The notes beneath the pieces are model-generated. The model did no database searches. It saw only the letters and a program-made list of their open reading frames with translations, and was not told where the DNA came from. Below are positions 4,643-28,900 of a stretch of DNA of 64,000 nt, one piece after another (within the stretch, counting starts at the first letter, position 1; each line of letters starts with the position of its first letter). The DNA is from Trichodelitschia bisporula (taxonomy: Eukaryota): positions 1,630,691 to 1,694,690 of the forward strand of contig ML996689.1 of assembly GCA_010356995.1 (NCBI GenBank), given 5' to 3'. A program made the position numbers and the translations under genes.

Positions 4643-6352
4643 TCACAACTCGTCGCGCTTGGGCTGCACTGGCTCGTCATCAAGAACCTCAACCTTGAGT
4701 CCCTCGGGCGACTCAAACTTGAGCTTCTCAATCGGCTCCTCCTTCTTAACCTTCTCCTCCGGTGCATCCTTTGGCTCGCCCGTCTTCTCATCCACCACCG
4801 CGTCCTTAACACCGAGTGCCTCCTTCGCCGCCTTGACCGCAGCTTCAGGCCGGCCCTCCTCCGGCGTCATGACCATCTGCTCAGGCAGCTTCTCCTTCTT
4901 GCCCTCATTCATGCGAATGGCATCAATCCAGTTCTCAACGCTGTTGCGGCTGAAATCCGCCCCAGAGTAGCGGCGCCACCACAACCTCTTCGCGTTGACA
5001 GCAATGACCTCGAACTCTTGAGGCCCTTTAATGCCCAGCGTCTCGCGCACCACCAGGCCCGCGACATTGTCCACGGGTACGGCGTAGAAGGGGAAGATCG
5101 AGCCGCGTTTGCTGTGCTTGGACTGCACTTCGGCGAGGGAGAGCAGCGCCTGCGTCGCGGGCTTGGGAAGATCGGCGTCGTCGGATGCCTTGGCCGGGAG
5201 GAGGGCGAGAATGCAGATGGGCGATTTCTTCGTTAGGCACGTCTCCTGCAGGTCTTCAGGGCCGGAAAGCATGCGGAGACGCGGGGGCGCATCTTCGGTG
5301 GGTTTGGCGGCGGGCGCCTCGGTGGATGCGGACTCTTTGGCCGCTTTATCTTTGCCAGCTTTGTGAGGACATTCCCCAGCCTTGGAGTCAGAATCCTTAC
5401 CAGCCTTGTCCGCCTTCTCGCCCTTGTCAGCCTTCTTGTCCTCTTTCGCCTTCTTCTCCGACTTCTTCTCTTTGTTTGCCTTCTTCGCCTTGGGCTTCTC
5501 GGGCTTCGGGTCTGGGTTGGGAGACGCAACTTGCTTGAGGAACGCGACGATAGCGTCGCGCTTGAGCTCGCCGTCGTACAGCACTGGCTCCTTGTCACCA
5601 CCTGGCACAAGGACGAGCTTCGGGAACGACGTGACGCCAAACTTCTCCGCCGCCTTTTTCTCCTTGTTGCGGATCTGCGCAAACGAGATACTGCCCAAGT
5701 AGTCAATAGCCAGCGCGCGAATCAGCGCACTCGTCGTGCCCTTCTCCGTGAACAAAATCGCCTTCGCACCCTCTCCACCCACAAACTCTTCCACGTCCTT
5801 GTCCGTCACGCGCTTCACATTGTTGGGGATCTTCTCGACGACAGCGTCGACAATGGCCTTGGCTGCGCGTGCGCCCTGGTAGTCTTCGATGACGGGTTTG
5901 CCGGGCTTCTTGCTCGGCCGCACGATCTTGAGCGTCGGGAAGCCCTGCACGCCAAACTGCCCGCACAGCGGCTTGTTCTCGTCCTCATCGCAGTTGACGG
6001 CGGCGACCTTGGCGAGCCCGGCGAGGGATTTGGCGGCTTTTTCGTAGGCGGGCTGGAGGTTCTTGCAGTGGCCGCACCAGGGAGCGTAGAATCTGGGGTT
6101 GTTAAAGGACCGAAGCGCTGGATGCAATTGTGGATACCTACTCGACGATCTAAAGCTGCATTAGCCCAGGCCTACCATTTGCTGGCTCAGAAAACTCACT
6201 GAAGTATGATTTGACTGGGCAATCAGCTTGTCGTATGTCTTGCTGGTGACTTGCAACACAGGAGAGTTCGCAGAGTAGAGCCCCGCATTTACAGGCATGC
6301 AGAGCAGAAGTGCAGCGGCCGAGACGGCGAGAGGTGAGAAGTGCCACGTCAT
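4643..6352 (-). CDS. MPD1: ER protein disulfide isomerase-like protein (Mpd1/PrpA type); exons 6200-6352, 6142-6149, 4643-6092
   Basis: Signal peptide, GLYS..SPV, IVEFYAPWCGHC thioredoxin site assembled across an 8-nt micro-exon, GVQGFPTLK, C-terminal RDEL. Confidence 0.9.
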
Positions 6353-6719
6353 GGCTGGATGATGGACAATTGAAGCATCAAAAGAGCGAGGTTGGATCAG
6401 CGGGGGAGGGACGAGGTGAGGGCAGATGATTTGTCTATATACGATTCACGGAGCGTTGCAGTGTCGCAGGTGCAAGGTGGCCTGTTCCGTGTTCCGATCC
6501 CCATCGCCGCACAGGAGCACAAAGACCCGTCAGCCTTGCCAGCCACTGCAGACATGGTCAGCCACCGCCGCTTGGAATGCGACTTTCCGACTGCGCCACA
6601 TGTGGGGCACCTTCACCTTCATCCCTGTGCGACTTCAACCGCTTCTCTTGTCAACAATCACCACAGCTCATAACGTATCCACACTCCCCCGACAGCCCGT
6701 ATCGTCACAGCCATCCACC

Positions 6720-7966
6720 ATGACGACTCCGCTGCCAGCTCCGCTGCGAGCGGCAGATATCTCACGTTTCGCGCTGCGCGCAGCCCAGCTCGAGAAGTTC
6801 AAGCCCGTGGTAGCCTACTGGTGTCAGTCTTCAGCTTCAGCATCCGACCTCTACTGACCCTATCTCTAGGCGACTACTTCATTGTCAACCAGATCCTCAA
6901 CAAGGGCCTACACACCGAGTCCGACGAAGCCATGACCTACACAACCAACCTCATGGACAAGCTCGAGCGCTGGAAGACAGATCACCCCGACAACGACGCC
7001 ATCCACGACGACGTCGCCGCGCAAGCCTACATCGAGCAATTCGCTCTCGAAACCTTCACCCGGGCCGACAACACCGTCCGCGCGAACAAGGCCACCGCCC
7101 AGACAGCAGACACCTTCCGCGCCGCCGCAACCTTCATCGACCTGATCACCATCTGGAAGTCCCCGCTCGACGCCGACCTAGCCGCGAAATCCAAATTCGC
7201 CAAATTTCACGCCCTCCGCATTGCTAAAGCCCTCAAAGCAGGCGAAGACCCCAATCTCTCCAACCCCGTCCAAGAAGAACCCGCCCCCGAACTCGACCCC
7301 CTCAGCCCTAACGACCCCGAAGTCCGGCGCCTGGGCTTGCAACCCACCGTCGAGGAAGCCAGCGAACGCGGCGTCTCCCCACCAATTTTCCCCGTCGAAA
7401 CATACAATTCCCAACCCCATCAACCCGCCCATGGCGATGTCTCCCCGCTAGAAACCTCGCCGGCCGAGGGCTACTTCCCCCACGTGCCCACCTTCACCGC
7501 AGACACTCCCCCTGTCCCGCACCCCACCGCAACCATGGCCCCGGACGCCGACGTGGTCATGGGCTCCACCTCTCCCGCACCCCCCTCCCAACCGCAGGAT
7601 TATTATGCCAATACTCCCGCATACCGCCCTCCGCCTACCCAATCCCCGGCCCCGTTTCCCGCCCAGACACCGCAGCCACCTACTCCGCGCGCACCGCCCT
7701 CACAAGCCCCAACCCAACCACCACAACCCCAATACCACCCCATGCAACAACCTCAACTTCCTACCCCGCAGCCGCTCCAGCCACCTCCACAACAGCAGTC
7801 CTACTCGAGCGGATACGACGACCCGCGCACCTACCGGCGAGACGACGAGGCGATCCTCGCGGCGCAGAAGCATGCCAAGTGGGCTATCTCAGCGCTGAAC
7901 TTTGAGGATGTTGATACCGCGGTTAGAGAGTTGAGGATTGCATTGGGCAGCTTGGGGGCACGATGA
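6720..7966 (+). CDS. VTA1: ESCRT/Vps4 cofactor Vta1 (intron 6823-6869)
   Basis: N-terminal MIT region (RAAQLEKFKPVVAYWC; KFAKFHALRIAKALKAGEDPN), Pro-rich linker, C-terminal VSL motif AQKHAKWAISALNFEDVDTA. Confidence 0.95.
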
Positions 7967-8215
7967 GGCTGTGGAAGTGACGGGGCGTGTTTGTAGGAGT
8001 ATGTAATCTAACTGGTTTGTTGGAAAAGCTTTTTGGGGGTTGCTGGGTCTCACGTTCACCAGTTGCGATCTCACTCCCAATCCTGTCATGACCACACTCA
8101 CAACCCGCCCACCTGGTACATATCTCTCACCCGAACCACTCCAAACTCCCTCTCCACCCGCTTCCTCGCCCTTCACAGCAGACCCCCCTCTTCACCCAGC
8201 AGCTCGCTTATCAGC

Positions 8216-8422
8216 ATGTGCGTCTTCACAGATCTGAAGTTTAAGTGCGGACACCGTTTCCGTGTAGCGGAGAAGCATTGTGGGCCTGCCGACCCGCAGA
8301 AGCACGCAGTATTTATGGAATTCTGGGAAGCGCAGGAGCAGTGCCCCTCGTGTGCGCAGACCTTTGCGGTGATGTGCCGGGTACTGGTTCGGCGTGCTAG
8401 CCACTGGGTGGTTTTTTACTAA
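8216..8422 (+). CDS. Cys/His micro-protein, array copy 1 (68 aa)
   Basis: MCVFTDLKFKCGHRFRVAEKHC...QCPSC. Paralogous to five downstream ORFs and shares their upstream module and AATAAA-like 3' element. Confidence 0.7.
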   Translation: MCVFTDLKFKCGHRFRVAEKHCGPADPQKHAVFMEFWEAQEQCPSCAQTFAVMCRVLVRRASHWVVFY

Positions 8423-8471
8423 CTAGGAAATAAAAATCGATATGTTGGATCTATTACTTTTACTTTTGCCT

Positions 8472-8812
8472 GTTGTGATCTCGTCTTCTAACCCTCTTGT
8501 GTGTCTTATTTCCAATCCGGTTTGTGATGCTCGCTTACAGCCCAATTGTGATCTCGTTCCTGATCTAGTTGTAACCTTACTTCTAACCTGCTTGTGGTCT
8601 CACTCCTGGCTTAGTTATGACATTACGCCTAGGCTAGTTGTAACTTTACTCCTCACCTAGTTGTGATCTCACTACTAGCCAGTTGGGATCTCAGTCCTGG
8701 CCAAGGTGTGATCTCACTCCTAGCCAAGTTGTGATCTCACTCCTAGCCAAGTTGTGATCTCACTCCCAGCCAGTTGCGATTCACTCCCAGCCACTTGTGA
8801 TCCCACTCACAA
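8472..8812. repeat. Degenerate minisatellite, about 15 x 21-25 bp, consensus GTTGTGATCTCACTCCTAGCCAA
   Basis: Units read directly. Near-identical at about 8660-8772 and more diverged to the left. Confidence 0.9.
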
Positions 8813-8814
8813 GT

Positions 8815-8840
8815 TGCCCAAGCGGTATATATCCCTCACC
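8815..8840 (+). promoter_or_regulatory. TATA-like core promoter (GCCCAAGCGGTATATATCCC); related boxes at about 8115, 9220, 9592, 10226 and 11012
   Basis: The same element follows the last dyad repeat about 70-150 nt before each array ATG. It is clear for copies 1, 2, 3 and 6 and degenerate for copies 4 and 5. Confidence 0.6.
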
Positions 8841-8876
8841 CGCACGACTCCAATCTTCCTCCTCACCTGCTTCCTT

Positions 8877-8966
8877 ACCTTCAGCAGATCCCCCCCTTCA
8901 CTCACCTTCTCAGCAGATCCCCCTCTTCACTCACCTTCTCAGCAGAACCCCCTCTTAACTCAGCAG
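8877..8966. repeat. Three tandem ~27-29 bp units (CTTCTCAGCAGATCCCCCTCTTCACTCAC) in the leader of copy 2
   Basis: Read directly. Copy 1 has a single equivalent unit (cttcacagcagacccccctcttcac, about 8171-8195). Confidence 0.85.
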
Positions 8967-8971
8967 CAATA

Positions 8972-9124
8972 ATGTGCATCTTCAAACAATCGAGATGCGA
9001 GTGCGGAGACAGAGTCCGTGTAGGAGAGATTCGGTGTGAGGACGCCGATCCGAAGCATGTAGTGCATATAGAAGGGTGAGAATCGTAGGGGCAGTGTACC
9101 CTGTGTACGCTGCCCTTGTTGTGA
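8972..9124 (+). pseudogene. Array copy 2, interrupted
   Basis: MCIFKQSRCECGDRVRVGEIRCEDADPKHVVHIEG*ES*GQCTLCTLPLL*. Stops at 9077 (TGA) and 9086 (TAG); CGH has become CGD. Confidence 0.75.
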
Positions 9125-9306
9125 GATTACTTCCTTGTTGTCACCTTACTCCCAACCTTAATGTGATCTCACTTCTAACCTAGAACTAGTGGTGACTTCA
9201 CCCCTGAGTCGCCTAAGCGGTATATATCCCGTAGCCACCCCACTTGACATTCCCTCTCCAGACCTTCCCTTCCACTCCTCTCCACACAACCTCCTCTTCA
9301 CTCAGG

Positions 9307-9528
9307 ATGTGCTTCCTCAACGAACTGAAGTTCGCGTGTGGACATACCCTCCGTGCGAACATCTCTCGGTGTTCAAGGAGCGGCCGCCGGCGCGCGGTGA
9401 TCATAGACGGATATGAATCAAAGGCCCAGTGTGCCAAATGTGGGCCGACTCCTTTCTGGGCAGATATTCCTGATTATGGGGACTTTCTGTTGATAGTGGA
9501 GGACGCTCGTAGAATCAATAGAAAATAG
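9307..9528 (+). CDS. Cys/His micro-protein, array copy 3 (73 aa)
   Basis: MCFLNELKFACGHTLRANISRC...AQCAKC, with no hydrophobic tail. Confidence 0.7.
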   Translation: MCFLNELKFACGHTLRANISRCSRSGRRRAVIIDGYESKAQCAKCGPTPFWADIPDYGDFLLIVEDARRINRK

Positions 9529-9663
9529 ACGATTGTTGGACTGAGACCCGCACCTTTGCTGTTTGTGACCTCACTCTAAGACCACCCGATGTCTACATTA
9601 ACCGCACCCGTACCACTGGATGCTCCCTTCCGTCGTCTCCATACCCCCCTTCTTTGCTCCAAG

Positions 9664-9903
9664 ATGTGCCTCTTCATCGTCCTGAAGTTCGAGTGCGGAC
9701 ACGGCGTCCGCGTTGCGACCTTCCGGTGTTCGCGCGCCGAGCTGCCATCTACGGACCCGGAGCACTTTGTGATTATGGGCCAGACGGTTGAATTCCACGA
9801 GTGGTGTCCGCCCTGTGTGCAGACCCGCTGGGCAGTGTGCTTGTTGCTAGTCTTAGGAGCGTGGTACTGGGCGATTACCGCTAAGCTTGCTGCTAGAAAA
9901 TGA
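9664..9903 (+). CDS. Cys/His micro-protein, array copy 4 (79 aa, hydrophobic C-terminal tail)
   Basis: MCLFIVLKFECGHGVRVATFRC...EWCPPC followed by WAVCLLLVLGAWYWAITA-KLAARK. Confidence 0.72.
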   Translation: MCLFIVLKFECGHGVRVATFRCSRAELPSTDPEHFVIMGQTVEFHEWCPPCVQTRWAVCLLLVLGAWYWAITAKLAARK

Positions 9904-10296
9904 ATAAAATCGATGTTTCTTGAATACTACTCCATGTTAGTGATGTATATAAATGTGAGTGATGGGAGCAAAGGCTCTGGCACGTGCAACGGCGAGTGTG
10001 CAAATTGAAGATTGAAGTAGAAGGCGAAGAGAGGAAGAGAGGAAGAGACTCCAGAGACTAGATATACAACATTAAGTATCCTCCATTGCTCCTTCCTTCT
10101 ATCATTTGCTCATTACGTCATGTCCCTTGGTATGCTCCTTCCATGTCTACATCAGTGAGGAACAGTATTGAAGCTATGATATCACATTCTGTCAGTTGTG
10201 ACCACACTACAACCTCCCCGCAAGGGGTATTAGAGACCTCTCCCGTTCCCCCTGAAAGCTCTCTCCACCCATCCCATCCGCCCTTAGCAAACAAAT

Positions 10297-10530
10297 ATGT
10301 ACTTCTTTCATCAAGCAGAGTTCTCGTGCGGTCACATCGTCCCTGAGGTGATCTGTCCGTGTAAAAGGGCGGCGCCGCCATTTACGCACTCGGCGCAGTG
10401 TGTGATTATGGATGAGGAGGGTAGATGGGACGACCGGATCTGTCCCGCGTGTGAGCGGAACCTCTGGTGGGTAGCGTACGCGTTGTTCATCTTGGGTGTA
10501 TGGTACCGGGTGTCTGGTACACTGCGCTAA
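10297..10530 (+). CDS. Cys/His micro-protein, array copy 5 (77 aa, hydrophobic C-terminal tail)
   Basis: MYFFHQAEFSCGHIVPEVICPC...ICPAC followed by LWWVAYALFILGVWY-RVSGTLR. Cys2 is replaced by Tyr. Confidence 0.7.
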   Translation: MYFFHQAEFSCGHIVPEVICPCKRAAPPFTHSAQCVIMDEEGRWDDRICPACERNLWWVAYALFILGVWYRVSGTLR

Positions 10531-11101
10531 CTGCTAAGTTAAAATAATAGACATGTTAAATGTTACATCTGCTTGATGCTATGAATGTGAGAAGCAAGGT
10601 GAGTTTGATTTGACATCCAGTACGGTTTCCAAAGGTCGATGTAGACGGCCTACTGTCTATTTAGCATGCAACCCGAATTCTAAGCTCATCGAGCTCTTCA
10701 TCTAAGCCAGAAAATGCCCACGTGAGGAAAATGATTCTTAAGGAAGTCTCTCTGGACATTCCCCGGAGCGTGCTCCGTGGAGTTGCGCGTAGTGCGCTCG
10801 TCTAGATTATCTGGAACCACCTGAAGGTTCAGGCTCTGTAGGGTCGCTGTTCGTGTCCCATTTCTCTTTCCTGACGTCATAGTAGCACGCTTGAAACTTC
10901 CTGGCGTGCCCCGAGAGGTGAGGAGCAATTGAGGTTGTCGGATATCACTTCCACCAGTTGTAACCTTACTCTCAACCCAGCTGTGACCTCACTCCAAAAC
11001 CGCCCAAGGGCGATATATACACTCCCCCGCCCGCCTAGAGACACTCCCTCGATGTCCTTCTCCTTACCTCCTCTCCAGACCCCCATCATTCCCTTAGCAA
11101 G

Positions 11102-11407
11102 ATGTGTTTCTTCAGGCTACAGGTGTTCACGTGTGGTCACGCCGTTCATACAGTCGTTACTCCATGTGAGCGGGTCGCGCTGCCATTGATAGACAAGGCG
11201 CACTTCGTAATTATGGACAGGACTATTGAACGGGATGATAAATGGTGACCCGAATATGCGCATACCGTTGAGAAGGGGACCGATGAGGGGGAGAGCCATT
11301 GGGCAGTATCTGTGACACTAGTTTTACTCGTAAGCGCAGTCTGCTGGGTGCTTATTGTTGGACTGGAGAAGCTGAGAACAGATGAAACAAAGGTTTCTGT
11401 TGACTGA
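11102..11407 (+). pseudogene. Array copy 6, single in-frame TGA at 11246-11248
   Basis: MCFFRLQVFTCGHAVHTVVTPCERVALPLIDKAHFVIMDRTIERDDKW*PEYAHTVEKGTDEGESHWAVSVTLVLLVSAVCWVLIVGLEKLRTDETKVSVD*. Confidence 0.7.
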
Positions 11408-11995
11408 CGTAGACTGAACTGTCGAGTGTACCATGTGGGCAACTCGTACTATATAGGAAATATGAAACAGGAGTGGTGTCGAGCCAAAGATACGATGAAA
11501 CAAGACAACGGAGGTAAGCAATCCCGAGCACTAACGGATACCGGCTACAAAGATACCGAGCGCGAAGTGATACAGGAGCTTACAATATCAGAAGGCTGTA
11601 ACAAATGGGAATCCGTCTAACACTTATTTATTGGGCTGGTTCTGGAAAAAAATGAAAACCGATATTTGCTGGATGTTACACTGCGCGATGAGGCATGTGA
11701 AAATGTGACCCGTTCGACGCCTGTACGATTGATAGGTCCTTTGAACGGCGAGGCTCGAGTACTATCACCACAAGAAGCTCGACATGTCAGGAAGTCGTAA
11801 TTAGCAGGTTAGAATCGCCCTATCTCGCCTTACTGTACCCGATCGAGATACATGTACACCCATCCGTCCATCCGGATCCCACCTAACCCACAAATCCCAT
11901 GCCGATCTCCCACATCGATCTCCCATGCCGATCCATCCACAGGTCATGGCAACCCACAACCGCCGAAATGCCACCCATCCATATGTCCATCCGTT

Positions 11996-13909
11996 CTAGA
12001 GATACCCATACTCATCATACGCTCTCCCCCCATCATCATCCTCGAGGACAACAACCTGGCCACTCTCTCTTCTAACCTCCGCAGCGCCCTCGTCCTCCCC
12101 ATGCAGTAGCTCGCCCACCTCCGCGCTCTCAGCCATCATCTCGCGAGCCCGCTCCGCGTCCACCTTAAGGTCCTCCATGATGAGCAGCGTCGTCATCTCT
12201 GGCGCCAGGACCATCTGCACGTAGCCGGCAGGTCCCTGCGCAGCGATGACGCGACCCCGCATCTCGCGGATACGCGGCGCGAAGGCTTCCTCGAAGAAAT
12301 CCATGCTGTGCAAGCGCAACCGTCAGCTCAAATCAACTCACACACACACTCGAAGAGCGTACGACGTACATGATCTGCATCCCCCGGCTCCCATAATACC
12401 CCATACTCAACCCCTCATCCTCCCCCCCCAGAATACTCTTAAGCAGACTCCTCGCCTTCCCCTGATCCACCGCGCTCTCCATTCTCCGATGAAAATACAT
12501 CTCCCCAGGATTATCCATCAGCTTCCCCATCTTCCTCTTCATCTTCTTCAATCTCCGCGGCAGCGCCTCAAAATCAATCTTCGGATACCCGCGCTCGGCA
12601 TAAATGACCTTCGCTTCGGCGGTCTTGTGCTGCGTACAAAACCGGCTTTGTTGGCGGTACGTCATGCGCGGATTCTCGAGCTTGTAGTCCGCAAGAGCTT
12701 GCTCGTCGACGGTAGCATGACAAATAGGGCACTGGTCCGCGCGCAGGGCCTCTATCTCATCGTCGGACAGCTCCGAGAGCTCCGAGGAGTCGTGCTCGAG
12801 AGCCGCCGCCGCTGCCTTCTGTTCGTCCGTCAGGGGCGGACCCAGCAGGGCGGTGAGGAGTTCGATTGTTTCGGCACCGCGAGGGACTTGGAAGGTCTGC
12901 TTTGGCTCATCTCGCTTTTTGATGAAGGTTTTCTTGGCTCTGCCGGCCTTGGACTTGGAATTGGGGATTTTCTCGGAGACTTTGGGCTTCGTTTGCTTAT
13001 CGGATGCCTCGGGCGTGTCGCGCTTCGGGGCAGGTACTCCTGTCCATTTCGGGAGGTTCGTGGGCACGGATGGGGGGATTCTGAAACCGTTGAGTGTCTT
13101 GGTGGAGCGGAATTTGTACCCCAATTCAGTCGACGATCCGCTTGATTGATCCATCTCTGCAGCTGCTTCTGTCGAGATACTCTCCTGAGACTCCCCCTTG
13201 ACTTGGGATGACGTAGGCACGTACGAATCGACACCACTGTAAACCGCTTTCGCTGCAAGAGTGTTAGCTGCATGAACAGATATCCAACTGATGCAACCTT
13301 ACACGCCATGGCCTTCGCCCGCTTAGTCGCTGGACCATCGGCGTGAATATTCGCAGCTGCGCGTCGCTTACTCTTGCCGAAGGTCTGGCCGACAAAAGAC
13401 TGGCGAGTTGCGTCGAAGAGATCGTCTGTAGGGCTTGACTGCCCAGCTTTCTTGCCAGCCGTCTTGTCCGCTGCCTTGCCAGCAGTCTTGTCGGCCTTCT
13501 TGCCAGCAGCTTTGTCCTGCGCCTTCGCCTTCGTCTTCCGCGGCTTAGCAGCAACAACCTCTTCGTCCTCTTTATTACTCTCCGAATCAAGCACCACCAC
13601 GGGAGCCTTGTTCGTGCCCCTTGCCGCGCGCGTGCTCCCCCGCTTCGCCTCCTGTGTCACCTTTTCGGGCCTGGGATCCGGCGGCGGGGTAGCCTTCTTG
13701 AACTGAGTGGCTGGAATGTTGGCGCGGGAGGGCAGGTCATCATCGGTGGAGAGCGGGTCGTCGTGGATGTCAGGAGAGGCCTTCTTGGGAGCTGGCTCGG
13801 GGGTGGTGGAGGTGGTGGGCAGGTGGTCGTCGTCCGTGGCGTAGGGTTTATTGCTGACCGTCCTGAGCAGCTTAGGGGGAGGATTTGACTTGCTCAATTG
13901 GGTCACCAT
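11996..13909 (-). CDS. RTC4: RTC4-like domain protein (introns at about 13255-13302 and about 12306-12368)
   Basis: CPIC...FCxxHK, RGYPKIDF, GYYGSRG and YVQMVLAPE...LIMEDL....AREMMAESAEVGELLH are typical of the fungal RTC4 domain. Long low-complexity N-terminus. Confidence 0.85.
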
Positions 13910-25744: not shown

Positions 25745-26368
25745 CTACCTGCACCAGAAGGGGCGCTGGCCGCGGCTGTTCGCGCACTCGCGCTGGCAAC
25801 GCCTGGTATAATCAGCCTCGCAACTCTTACCTCGGATTTGGGGGAAACATACTCGCTCAGCGGCTCATTGCGCCTAAAGTCCTCACAGCGGCGATCATTC
25901 CACCCCGGGTTCCCAGGATTGAACCCCGGGTTCCCAGGATTGAACCCCGGGTTCCAGCCCGGGCCATTGTTGTTCCCAACATTCCCGCGCTGGCTCTGGC
26001 AATCGCGGCGCTCACGCCCGTCGAACTTGTTGCAGTAGTTCGGGTCGCTCTGGCACTCGCGACGCTCGCGGCCCTCGTACTTGTTGCAGTAGTCGTTGCG
26101 CGGAGGCGCGCGCTGGCTCTGGCAATCGCGGCGCTCGCGCCCGTCGAACTTGTTGCAGTAGTTGGCGTCCGACTGGCAGTCGCGACGCTCGCGGCCCTCG
26201 TACTTGTCGCAGTAGTCGGCGGGAGCTGCCGGGGTGGCGGCTTCGGCCGGGGCGGCGTCGGCGGGGAGGGCGAGGGCCACAGCGCTTGGGGGGGTTAGAG
26301 GGGCGGTGGGTGGGGTGGAGGGCTTACCCGAAGCTGAGGACGGCGAGGAGGGCCTTGGTGAGATGCAT
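25745..26368 (-). CDS. Small secreted Cys-rich repeat protein, 176 aa (exons 26328-26368, 25853-26284, 25745-25802)
   Basis: Spliced signal peptide MHLTKALLAVLSFGAVALA; 4x YCxK(Y/F)(E/D)GRERR(D/E)CQS; NPG repeats; ends RCQRECANSRGQRPFWCR. Both introns have GT/branch/AG signals and the spliced length is a multiple of 3. Confidence 0.85.
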
Positions 26369-28633: not shown

Positions 28634-28900
28634 ACCTTTGGCAGTCTGTCAGCTGCCATCGCTTCGGGCATCTTAAGTGTTGTCAGATTGAGAATCGTAC
28701 GTTGATGCCGCAAGTGTCTTCGGGCAGGTCAGGAGCACCGGATGTCGAGACGAGTATCACCTTTGGCACTCTGTCAGCTTCCATCGCTACGGGTATCTTG
28801 AGCGCTGTCAGGTTGAGAAACGTACCGGGATGTTCAGATGATGGCGAAGAGCTGATGCCGCAAGTGTCTTCGGACGGGTTAGGAGCACCGGATTTTCGAC
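28634..28900. repeat. Diverged tandem duplication (150-nt unit; left copy has a 25-nt deletion), probable coding relic on the minus strand
   Basis: acctttggca..ctgtcagct at 28634 and 28759; tgatgccgcaagtgtcttcgg at 28703 and 28853. Confidence 0.75.

Follow-up and report, generated by a model that had tools for sequence, protein, structure and literature searches.

Lineage-specific clusters of small genes built on a cysteine (Cys) scaffold are common in filamentous fungi. The small secreted Cys-rich, effector-like proteins of these organisms are defined by a signal peptide and disulfides, and the orphan killer and meiotic-drive genes of fungi are tiny and fast-evolving, are restricted to particular lineages and easily escape gene callers. 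Metallothioneins have a very high Cys content, with CxC and CxxC clusters throughout, while tail-anchored proteins form a class that is inserted post-translationally, for example by the GET pathway. Here we describe a tandem array of six diverged micro-genes in a 64,000-nucleotide (nt) stretch of the Trichodelitschia bisporula genome (contig ML996689.1 of assembly GCA_010356995.1, positions 1,630,691 to 1,694,690 of the forward strand), hereafter the window, in which positions are counted from its first letter. We put the probability at about 0.55 that these genes, co-regulated and subject to birth and death, encode a family of small tail-anchored proteins that probably bind zinc. From an evolutionary standpoint the array would be a lineage-restricted micro-gene family that grew as a whole transcription unit was duplicated in tandem between VTA1 and an RTC4-like gene, and that would today be turning over by birth and death.

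Like the secreted Cys-rich families, the array consists of small, Cys-scaffolded, fast-diverging, clustered and poorly annotated genes accompanied by pseudogenes and repeats; its proteins differ in having, by inspection, no signal-like N-terminus, a predicted C-terminal anchor and few Cys (6 of 79 residues in copy 4). The resemblance to killer and meiotic-drive genes, which would match the conflict role suggested in the sequence-only reading, an earlier interpretation of the same window, is a functional analogy alone, no evidence from sequence, structure or genetics tying the array to drive or killing. A metallothionein was rejected on Cys content, the other open copies having 5-7 Cys each. 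Likeness to tail-anchored proteins lies in a single predicted hydrophobic helix at the extreme C-terminus with a few basic residues (copies 4, 5 and pre-insertion copy 6) and in the absence, by inspection, of an evident signal peptide; tail-anchored proteins are, however, a topological class and not a homologous family, and copies 1 and 3 have no convincing hydrophobic segment. Zinc-ribbon and treble-clef mini-domains (Zn_ribbon_8, eL43, the Zn(Cys)4 site of Fur/PerR) are likewise small, and the array protein is predicted to place, as they do, one ligand pair (C-G-H) at a hairpin turn and a CxxC at or beside the start of a helix. It differs from them in its first knuckle, C-x-H instead of CxxC, in the conservation of two extra Cys (2 and 22) and in the hydrophobic helix joined to the domain at its C-terminus; no score against them was significant. 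By every test applied here the array belongs to no named family, and the sequence-only reading had likewise assigned none.

That reading had proposed six same-strand units, and a six-frame regular-expression scan and an nhmmer unit profile, both run over the 64 kb, place them on the plus strand at the expected ATGs (Table 1). The pattern M-x9-CG(H/D)-x8-C occurs at six sites only in the whole window, each ATG opening the fuller pattern M-(C/Y)-x8-C-G-(H/D)-x8-C, and the profile returned six full units and the upstream-motif array described below, with no further match in the 64 kb. Alignment of the six copies shows Met1, Cys11, Gly12 and Cys22 to be invariant; Cys2 is replaced (by Tyr) in copy 5 only and His13 (by Asp) in copy 2 only, so that the predicted pattern of kept and lost ligands holds. 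A distal CxxC had been assigned to five copies, and five of the six do carry it at the DNA level; the claim fails at the protein level for copy 2, where the CxxC lies past two in-frame stops. The picture of a fixed Cys/His scaffold with variable surroundings is sound, in that nucleotide identity outside 13 near-invariant columns is 0.49, 0.42 and 0.49 at codon positions 1, 2 and 3, respectively. Identity to copy 4 ranges from 29 to 46% across three alignments, with 35% between copies 4 and 5. The default open reading frame (ORF) track lacks copies 2 and 6 and starts too early in copies 1 (8033), 3 (9244) and 4 (9589), in line with the two omissions and three mis-starts noted earlier. Protein databases contain one of the six copies, namely copy 4, entered as P0001 with 104 amino acids and the same wrong start at 9589.

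Neutral drift was simulated on a star tree with substitutions only, with copy 4 standing in for the ancestor and branch lengths set to either side of the observed identity; the star tree is a reasonable assumption, since the pairwise identities are all similar. At none of four divergence levels did a single run out of 2000 keep all five Cys columns as Cys in at least five of six copies (mean number of Cys columns kept, 0.2-0.9; maximum, 4). For a single copy, the probability of retaining the ATG and an open frame of 79 codons was 0.027-0.069, which gives a probability of 0.0003 or less for at least four open frames among six. Four of the six observed frames are open, over 68-79 codons. These simulations reject non-coding drift, and the open frames and Cys columns kept beyond neutral expectation imply selection on the Cys/His scaffold and the frame after most of the duplications. 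Copy 5, which has lost Cys2, has gained a Cys20 beside Cys22; the gain offsets the loss, leaving its count of potential ligands unchanged.

The copied unit was the complete transcription unit, as the sequence-only reading had concluded: in the six-unit DNA alignment and by nhmmer, the units correspond in upstream motif, TATA-like box, leader and 3' element, the last of these being common to copies 1, 3, 4, 5 and 6. The 14-nt upstream motif TTGTGAYCTCACTC, allowing up to two mismatches, has 15 matches in the window, all of them on the plus strand and all within 8063-10994; shuffled sequence gave 0.92 on average and never more than 5. Between one and four copies stand near each TATA-like box, mostly at a spacing of 23 nt (22, 21 and 29 nt in three cases). 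The distance from the gene-proximal motif downstream to the box is nearly constant across the six units, at 29, 29, 29, 29, 30 and 31 nt. A C-rich leader follows, so placed that the ATG lies 69-146 nt beyond the point where the box starts; the leader of copy 2 is extended by a tandem repeat (Table 1). All six ATGs have A at -3. Upstream of copy 2 the motif-bearing unit is amplified into an array, in which Tandem Repeats Finder (TRF) counts 9.6 copies at a period of 23 nt (8592-8808) and 5.9 at twice that period, 46 nt (8542-8808), with weaker copies back to about 8464. An ATG-initiated ORF of 72 amino acids, at 8442-8660, overlies this array and is most likely an artefact of the repeat periodicity, not a gene.

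The common promoter module, with every motif match inside the island, agrees with the shared regulation proposed earlier, and suggests that one DNA-binding factor, acting through the 14-nt motif of the six promoters, may activate the copies together. Three known sites were tried as the identity of the motif, PacC (GCCARG), the E-box (CANNTG) and the cAMP response element (CRE; TGACGTCA); none is kept in all six promoters, and no factor is therefore named. Full-text literature searching with the motif string GTGATCTCAC, judged by titles and abstract openings, returned nothing relevant. A perfect TGACGTCA palindrome does occur in the spacer that precedes copy 6 (10872-10879), and TTACGTCA is found upstream of copy 5 (10113-10120). 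Both are without counterpart in the other units, and both we take to be sites of the CRE/basic leucine zipper type.

The regularity of these arrays raises the possibility of a function at the DNA or RNA level, in which the motifs would regulate, mark a boundary or drive non-coding transcripts, and the ORFs would be incidental. The motif array is indeed the most regular feature of the island, the promoter architecture is conserved as well as the coding sequence, and one RNA contig (X3, below) links VTA1 with copy 1 (6674-8402). A kept Met1, five Cys, Gly12, His13, reading frame and A at -3 are, however, unexpected for non-coding DNA, and Rfam gave no match at an expectation value (E) up to 1, so that we regard such a function as highly improbable.

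Transcription was followed in contigs from four sequencing runs of one organism, two of DNA (X1, X2; possibly those from which the assembly was made) and two of RNA (X3, X4; one sample of a second study). The assignment of X3 and X4 to RNA follows from their skipping of canonical GT..AG introns at 6823-6869, 12306-12369 and 13253-13302, which the DNA contigs do not skip; such introns in the window are short (47-64 nt) and are removed in the RNA contigs. Together with the ESM Atlas matches described below, these introns indicate a filamentous ascomycete. Five of the six copies, both pseudogenes included, are present in the RNA of this one condition (copies 1-4 and 6; Table 1). Copy 5 (10297-10530) has no contig cover in X3 or X4, which is not evidence of silence. 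The contig over copy 4 starts downstream of the database ATG at 9589, thus supporting 9664 as the true start.

Two further features of these contigs concern the genes to the left. The X4 contig of VTA1 ends at 8169, within the copy 1 promoter region, and the X3 contig joins VTA1 to copy 1; the joined contig could reflect read-through or overlapping transcripts. At 6092-6200, X3 and X4 contigs skip 107 nt with CT..AC borders, an intron of a minus-strand ORF resembling disulfide isomerase, and carry 8 extra letters between the two sides, which could reflect alternative splicing at this site or a minor difference in assembly.

Two of the six copies are pseudogenes, as a history of birth and death would have it. 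In copy 2 the stops TGA and TAG, which correspond to TGG and CAG in copy 1, precede the CxxC. In copy 6 a TGA occupies the first Cys position of the CxxC and a Tyr the second; about ten extra residues follow this position, and then a strongly hydrophobic tail that is cut by a 267-bp repeat element. The element begins with TGTTGG and ends with TAACA, is flanked by a perfect 5-bp CTTAT duplication (11351-11355 and 11623-11627), and has a summed DNA contig depth of 27895 as compared with about 200-250 alongside, indicating a high copy number in the genome. Many DNA contigs end at its borders, with loose ends at 11350-11356 and 11622-11623. With its TG...CA termini, 5-bp target duplication and many genome copies it behaves like a solo long terminal repeat (LTR), a probable class judged from its ends, duplication and copy number. 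When the element and one CTTAT are removed in silico, copy 6 reads in frame across its hydrophobic tail into a short basic end, where a stop codon closes it, and beyond this lies the 3' element shared with copies 1, 3, 4 and 5. The end of the array, earlier set at 11410 for an island starting at 8040, must accordingly be moved to near 11690, where the remainder of copy 6 ends.

The summed depth of the element is very high in DNA and RNA contigs alike. One X3 contig contains a GT..AG joint 11329>11393, the far side of which (42 letters) falls within this high-copy sequence. Three TGAAACA words, the sequence of the yeast pheromone-response element, lie inside it near 11383, 11463 and 11496. A second, short dispersed repeat occupies about 10050-10155, in the spacer between copies 4 and 5, with a DNA contig depth of about 2600 versus about 250 alongside; contigs break at 10076-10105, joints run 10048>10132, and loose ends are seen at 10154-10158. 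A GAAGAGAG microsatellite adjoins this repeat.

These two repeats, the higher AT content of the island and its position as a break in a run of housekeeping genes would suit an array that is cargo or debris of mobile elements instead of a resident gene family. Against this, the target duplication of the LTR-like element lies inside copy 6, so that the insertion is later than the array; the units are single-copy by X1 DNA contig depth (243-257 versus 197-207 in the flanks); and none of 27 Pfam-scanned ORFs of the window contains a transposase, integrase or other mobile-element domain. Repeat-induced point mutation (RIP) was likewise rejected as the cause of copy divergence, the composite RIP index being -0.23 in the island and -0.63 and -0.75 in the flanks, with a transition/transversion ratio of 0.73; no 1-kb window has a composite index above 0, and no clear RIP signature was seen. 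A mobile origin is in our view very improbable.

The ancestral product of what we take to be a resident protein family would be about 75-80 amino acids long, lacking an evident signal peptide, with its N-terminal 55 or so residues forming a three-stranded sheet and the start of a helix. An AlphaFold2 model of full-length copy 4, made with the six-row alignment, reaches a predicted local distance difference test (pLDDT) of 72.7 overall and has strands at residues 2-9, 14-20 and 37-44 and a helix at 49-77, the last three 10-residue blocks of which average 82-93; a model of just the first 56 residues has this topology too, at a pLDDT of 69.8. In these models C-G-H is placed at the first hairpin turn and the CxxC at the N-terminus of the helix, with Cys2 and Cys22 next to each other where the hairpin opens. 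Such a layout would correspond to a zinc knuckle plus helix of treble-clef or zinc-ribbon-like kind with one additional Cys pair. Judging from the ligand pattern and a model of medium confidence, the six Cys/His ligands of the mini-domain would chelate metal, most likely zinc. Prediction of a copy 4 homodimer with two zinc ions scored 0.07, against a mark of 0.32.

The helix would continue into a hydrophobic C-terminal segment, a candidate tail anchor that would be inserted post-translationally and leave the metal domain in the cytosol. Maximum Kyte-Doolittle hydropathy of the tail is 1.98 in copy 4, 1.45 in copy 5 and 2.74 in copy 6, compared with 1.04 in copy 1 and 0.66 in copy 3, and a short basic end follows the hydrophobic helix in copies 4, 5 and pre-insertion copy 6. 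The tail of copy 3 matches that of copy 4 in length and in its last two codons but is acidic. In the N-termini of the six copies no signal-like hydrophobic run is evident by inspection, residues 2-9 being a predicted strand with charged residues. The ancestral product therefore appears to have been a tail-anchored membrane protein whose small metal-binding head lay in the cytosol. The earlier description of a cytosolic zinc-binding mini-domain stands as far as the ligand pattern and the lack of an evident signal peptide go; with a tail-anchor-like helix in copies 4, 5 and pre-break 6, the product is probably not simply cytosolic.

A different chemistry also deserves mention here: the Cys and His residues might bind an iron-sulfur cluster or serve as a redox switch, or the protein might be lumenal or extracellular and contain disulfides formed by these residues. 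Six ligands exceed the four needed by one zinc, PerR, whose Zn(Cys)4 site is called a redox switch in the title of its entry, is among the weak structural look-alikes, and the present analyses do not tell metals apart. On the other hand, the N-termini show by inspection no signal-like run and start with a predicted strand containing charged residues, a C-terminal anchor would place the domain in the reducing cytosol, and Pfam gave no match to an iron-sulfur family at E up to 1. We consider this chemistry quite improbable and zinc the best candidate.

The searches for relatives are insensitive for proteins of 70-80 amino acids, and the sister copies are absent from protein databases. A word-indexed search with copy 4 returned only P0001, as did an exhaustive phmmer search of 1.84 billion representatives; a six-copy profile matched one of ten candidates of near length, again P0001, and none of 1991 longer candidates at E up to 10. 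In a metagenome scan with copy 4, L001-L003 shared only the search word QTRWAVCL and lacked the Cys motif, and were dismissed as chance matches. Pfam gave no significant family for the six copies, five of which had no family at all at E up to 1, and the best match of a PDB profile search was eL43 (E 0.76). Two further resemblances, to the CSL zinc finger (DPH3/Kti11) and the CDGSH iron-sulfur domain, were not borne out: Pfam lists neither family for any of the six copies at E up to 1, and the PDB profile search, taken to E 10, recovered neither. The weak rows of the Foldseek and VIA searches include Zur, PerR, Fur and zinc-ribbon ribosomal proteins, a cyanobacterial zinc sensor being among those of Foldseek; VIA aligned the N-domain with PerR/Fur at Z 2.5 and a root-mean-square deviation of 7.5-8.7, from a query model with a pLDDT of about 70. 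Full-text literature searching, judged by titles and abstract openings, gave nothing relevant on tail-anchored, zinc-ribbon or tandem Cys families in Ascomycota.

In the ESM Atlas, copies 4 and 5 each score 0.90-0.92 against the same two unnamed Ascomycota clusters of like size (79 amino acids with 117 members, and 82 amino acids with 55 members), sharing 197-203 of 256 features. This likeness, the only outside lead, is one of language-model features and not a test. Following the lead, the array might be a locally expanded member of a widespread unnamed Ascomycota family of micro-proteins of about 70-80 amino acids, mostly missed by gene callers, each a tail-anchored metal-binding hairpin; one dedicated factor would act through the 23-nt repeat to activate the genes together, and the fast turnover of their variable surfaces would stem from a role in recognition or conflict (self/non-self, killer/immunity or a stage-specific membrane event). 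We offer this as a doubtful, speculative extension.

Several observations weigh against a maintained family of metal-binding, tail-anchored proteins. Over the whole N-domain nucleotide identity is 0.59, 0.54 and 0.53 at codon positions 1, 2 and 3; these values are nearly flat, and the coding part is not better conserved than the 200 nt upstream (0.52). Nei-Gojobori ratios of nonsynonymous to synonymous divergence (dN/dS) are below 1 in all 15 pairs (0.28-0.89, with 0.8-0.9 in five) and point to weak purifying instead of positive selection, on a saturated dS (0.68-2.25) that makes them soft. Taken alone, the identity and dN/dS figures are weak coding evidence, and, as no homologue was found, constraint is judged from six paralogues of one genome alone. 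Regarding the protein, the topology fits a zinc ribbon or treble clef in models of medium confidence only, block-mean pLDDT falling to 53-63 over loop residues 21-40. No fold match is significant (best Foldseek E 0.3; VIA Z up to 3.0 for the full model, through the helix only, and 2.8 for the N-domain), and the match of copy 1 to Zn_ribbon_8 (PF09723; E 0.5) reaches 10.9 bits where the cut-off is 34.4. Copies 1 and 3 lack tail hydrophobicity and copies 2 and 6 are dead, leaving copies 4 and 5 as the only ones to retain both scaffold and hydrophobic tail. As to transcription, word depths of island contigs are 4.8-16.6 versus 65-352 for flanking genes (0-2.3 in uncovered island bins), although contig depth is a poor measure of expression that does not rank genes; the contigs give no strand, and the RNA comes from one sample of one study. 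Since pseudogene copies are transcribed too, transcription alone is no proof of function.

Much of this would be expected of a relic family, which once coded for a Cys-scaffold protein and now drifts as a whole, its open frames being merely the copies not yet hit. Consistent with a relic are the stops in two of six copies, one of which also has the repeat insertion, the loss of the hydrophobic tail in two of four open copies, the flat codon-position identities with a coding sequence no better conserved than its upstream region, the five dN/dS values of 0.8-0.9, and the transcription of pseudogene copies like open ones. What speaks for a family still under selection is the rarity with which neutral drift leaves four of six frames open or all five Cys columns in place in the simulations above, together with the compensating Cys20 in copy 5, which argues for a continued need of the ligand set. 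We therefore hold the relic explanation to be unlikely.

The array lies within the stretch 8040-11700, in the gap between the 3' ends of two convergent genes. VTA1, on the plus strand to the left (Pfam PF04652, E 4e-33), has its stop codon at 7964-7966, and the first upstream motif begins 97 nt past it, close to the distance of about 100 nt given earlier. The RTC4-like gene, on the minus strand to the right, is a weaker assignment, a single exon piece with a Pfam match of E 0.0047, which is below the Pfam cut-off. The island is more AT-rich than its surroundings, as had been noticed (GC 0.47-0.55 versus 0.56-0.66). The wider window is ordinary housekeeping territory: in a Pfam scan of its ORFs, a FAD mono-oxygenase, SAS4, a protein disulfide isomerase and VTA1 lie to the left, and an RTC/Rcl1-like cyclase, TAF2, an Xrn exonuclease, Uso1, PhoD-like phosphatases, a Kex2-like subtilase and an isoleucyl-tRNA-synthetase-like gene to the right. 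Two pairs of direct repeats were also noted in the window, both at 93% identity, one at 25986-26218 (110 nt x 2, spacing 123 nt) and one at 28703-28893 (41 nt x 2, spacing 150 nt).

Table 1. Features of the micro-gene array, in window coordinates, followed by the RNA contigs that cover its copies. Rows for reading frames and for the starts of pseudogenes begin at the ATG.
Feature	Position	Strand	Details
Copy 1 promoter module	8063-8124	+	upstream motifs 8063-8076 and 8088-8097; TATA-like box 8117
Copy 1 ORF, 68 amino acids	8216-8422	+	Cys/His scaffold intact; tail with three Arg, not clearly membrane-spanning
Array of 23-nt units carrying TTGTGAYCTCACTC, upstream of copy 2	8464-8808	+	found by TRF, motif scan and nhmmer
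Copy 2 TATA box and leader	8826-8962	+	TATA box 8826; 29-nt x 2.8 tandem repeat at 8881-8962
Copy 2 pseudogene	8972-9124	+	35 codons, TGA 9077-9079, TAG 9086-9088, then CxxC in frame
Copy 3 promoter module	9138-9228	+	motifs 9140, 9163 and 9192; TATA box 9221
Copy 3 ORF, 73 amino acids	9307-9528	+	scaffold intact; tail acidic
Copy 4 promoter module	9563-9601	+	single motif 9563-9576; TATA-like box 9594
Copy 4 ORF, 79 amino acids	9664-9903	+	full scaffold and hydrophobic C-terminal helix
Copy 5 promoter module	10196-10235	+	single motif 10196-10209; TATA-like box 10228
Copy 5 ORF, 77 amino acids	10297-10530	+	Tyr at Cys2, extra Cys20 (C-P-C at 20-22), hydrophobic tail
Copy 6 promoter module	10958-11021	+	motifs 10958 and 10981; TATA box 11014
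Copy 6 pseudogene, first part	11102-11355	+	TGA 11246-11248; tail cut by repeat element
Solo-LTR-like element, 267 bp	11356-11622	not assigned	TG...CA ends, CTTAT duplication
Copy 6 remainder	11628-11690	+	last tail codons, TGA 11653-11655, shared 3' element
Copy 1 RNA	X4 8173-8426; X3 6674-8402		X3 contig is that of VTA1, reaching into copy 1
Copies 2 and 3 RNA	X3 8873-9424; X4 8879-9518		starts 47-53 nt past TATA box 8826
Copy 4 RNA	X3 9610-9984		
Copy 6 RNA	X3 10937-11329; X4 10987-11277		

As it stands, the array is a well-documented orphan family of moderate interest, clusters of lineage-specific small genes being common in filamentous fungi. It illustrates that small genes of this kind are systematically lost in fungal annotation, one copy in six having reached the protein databases here, and that one with a wrong start. 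If its products are indeed membrane-anchored metal-binding micro-proteins, they would constitute a protein family with no named relative, and the locus, with six paralogues, one promoter motif and natural pseudogenes, would provide a compact system in which to study the birth, regulation and loss of micro-proteins.

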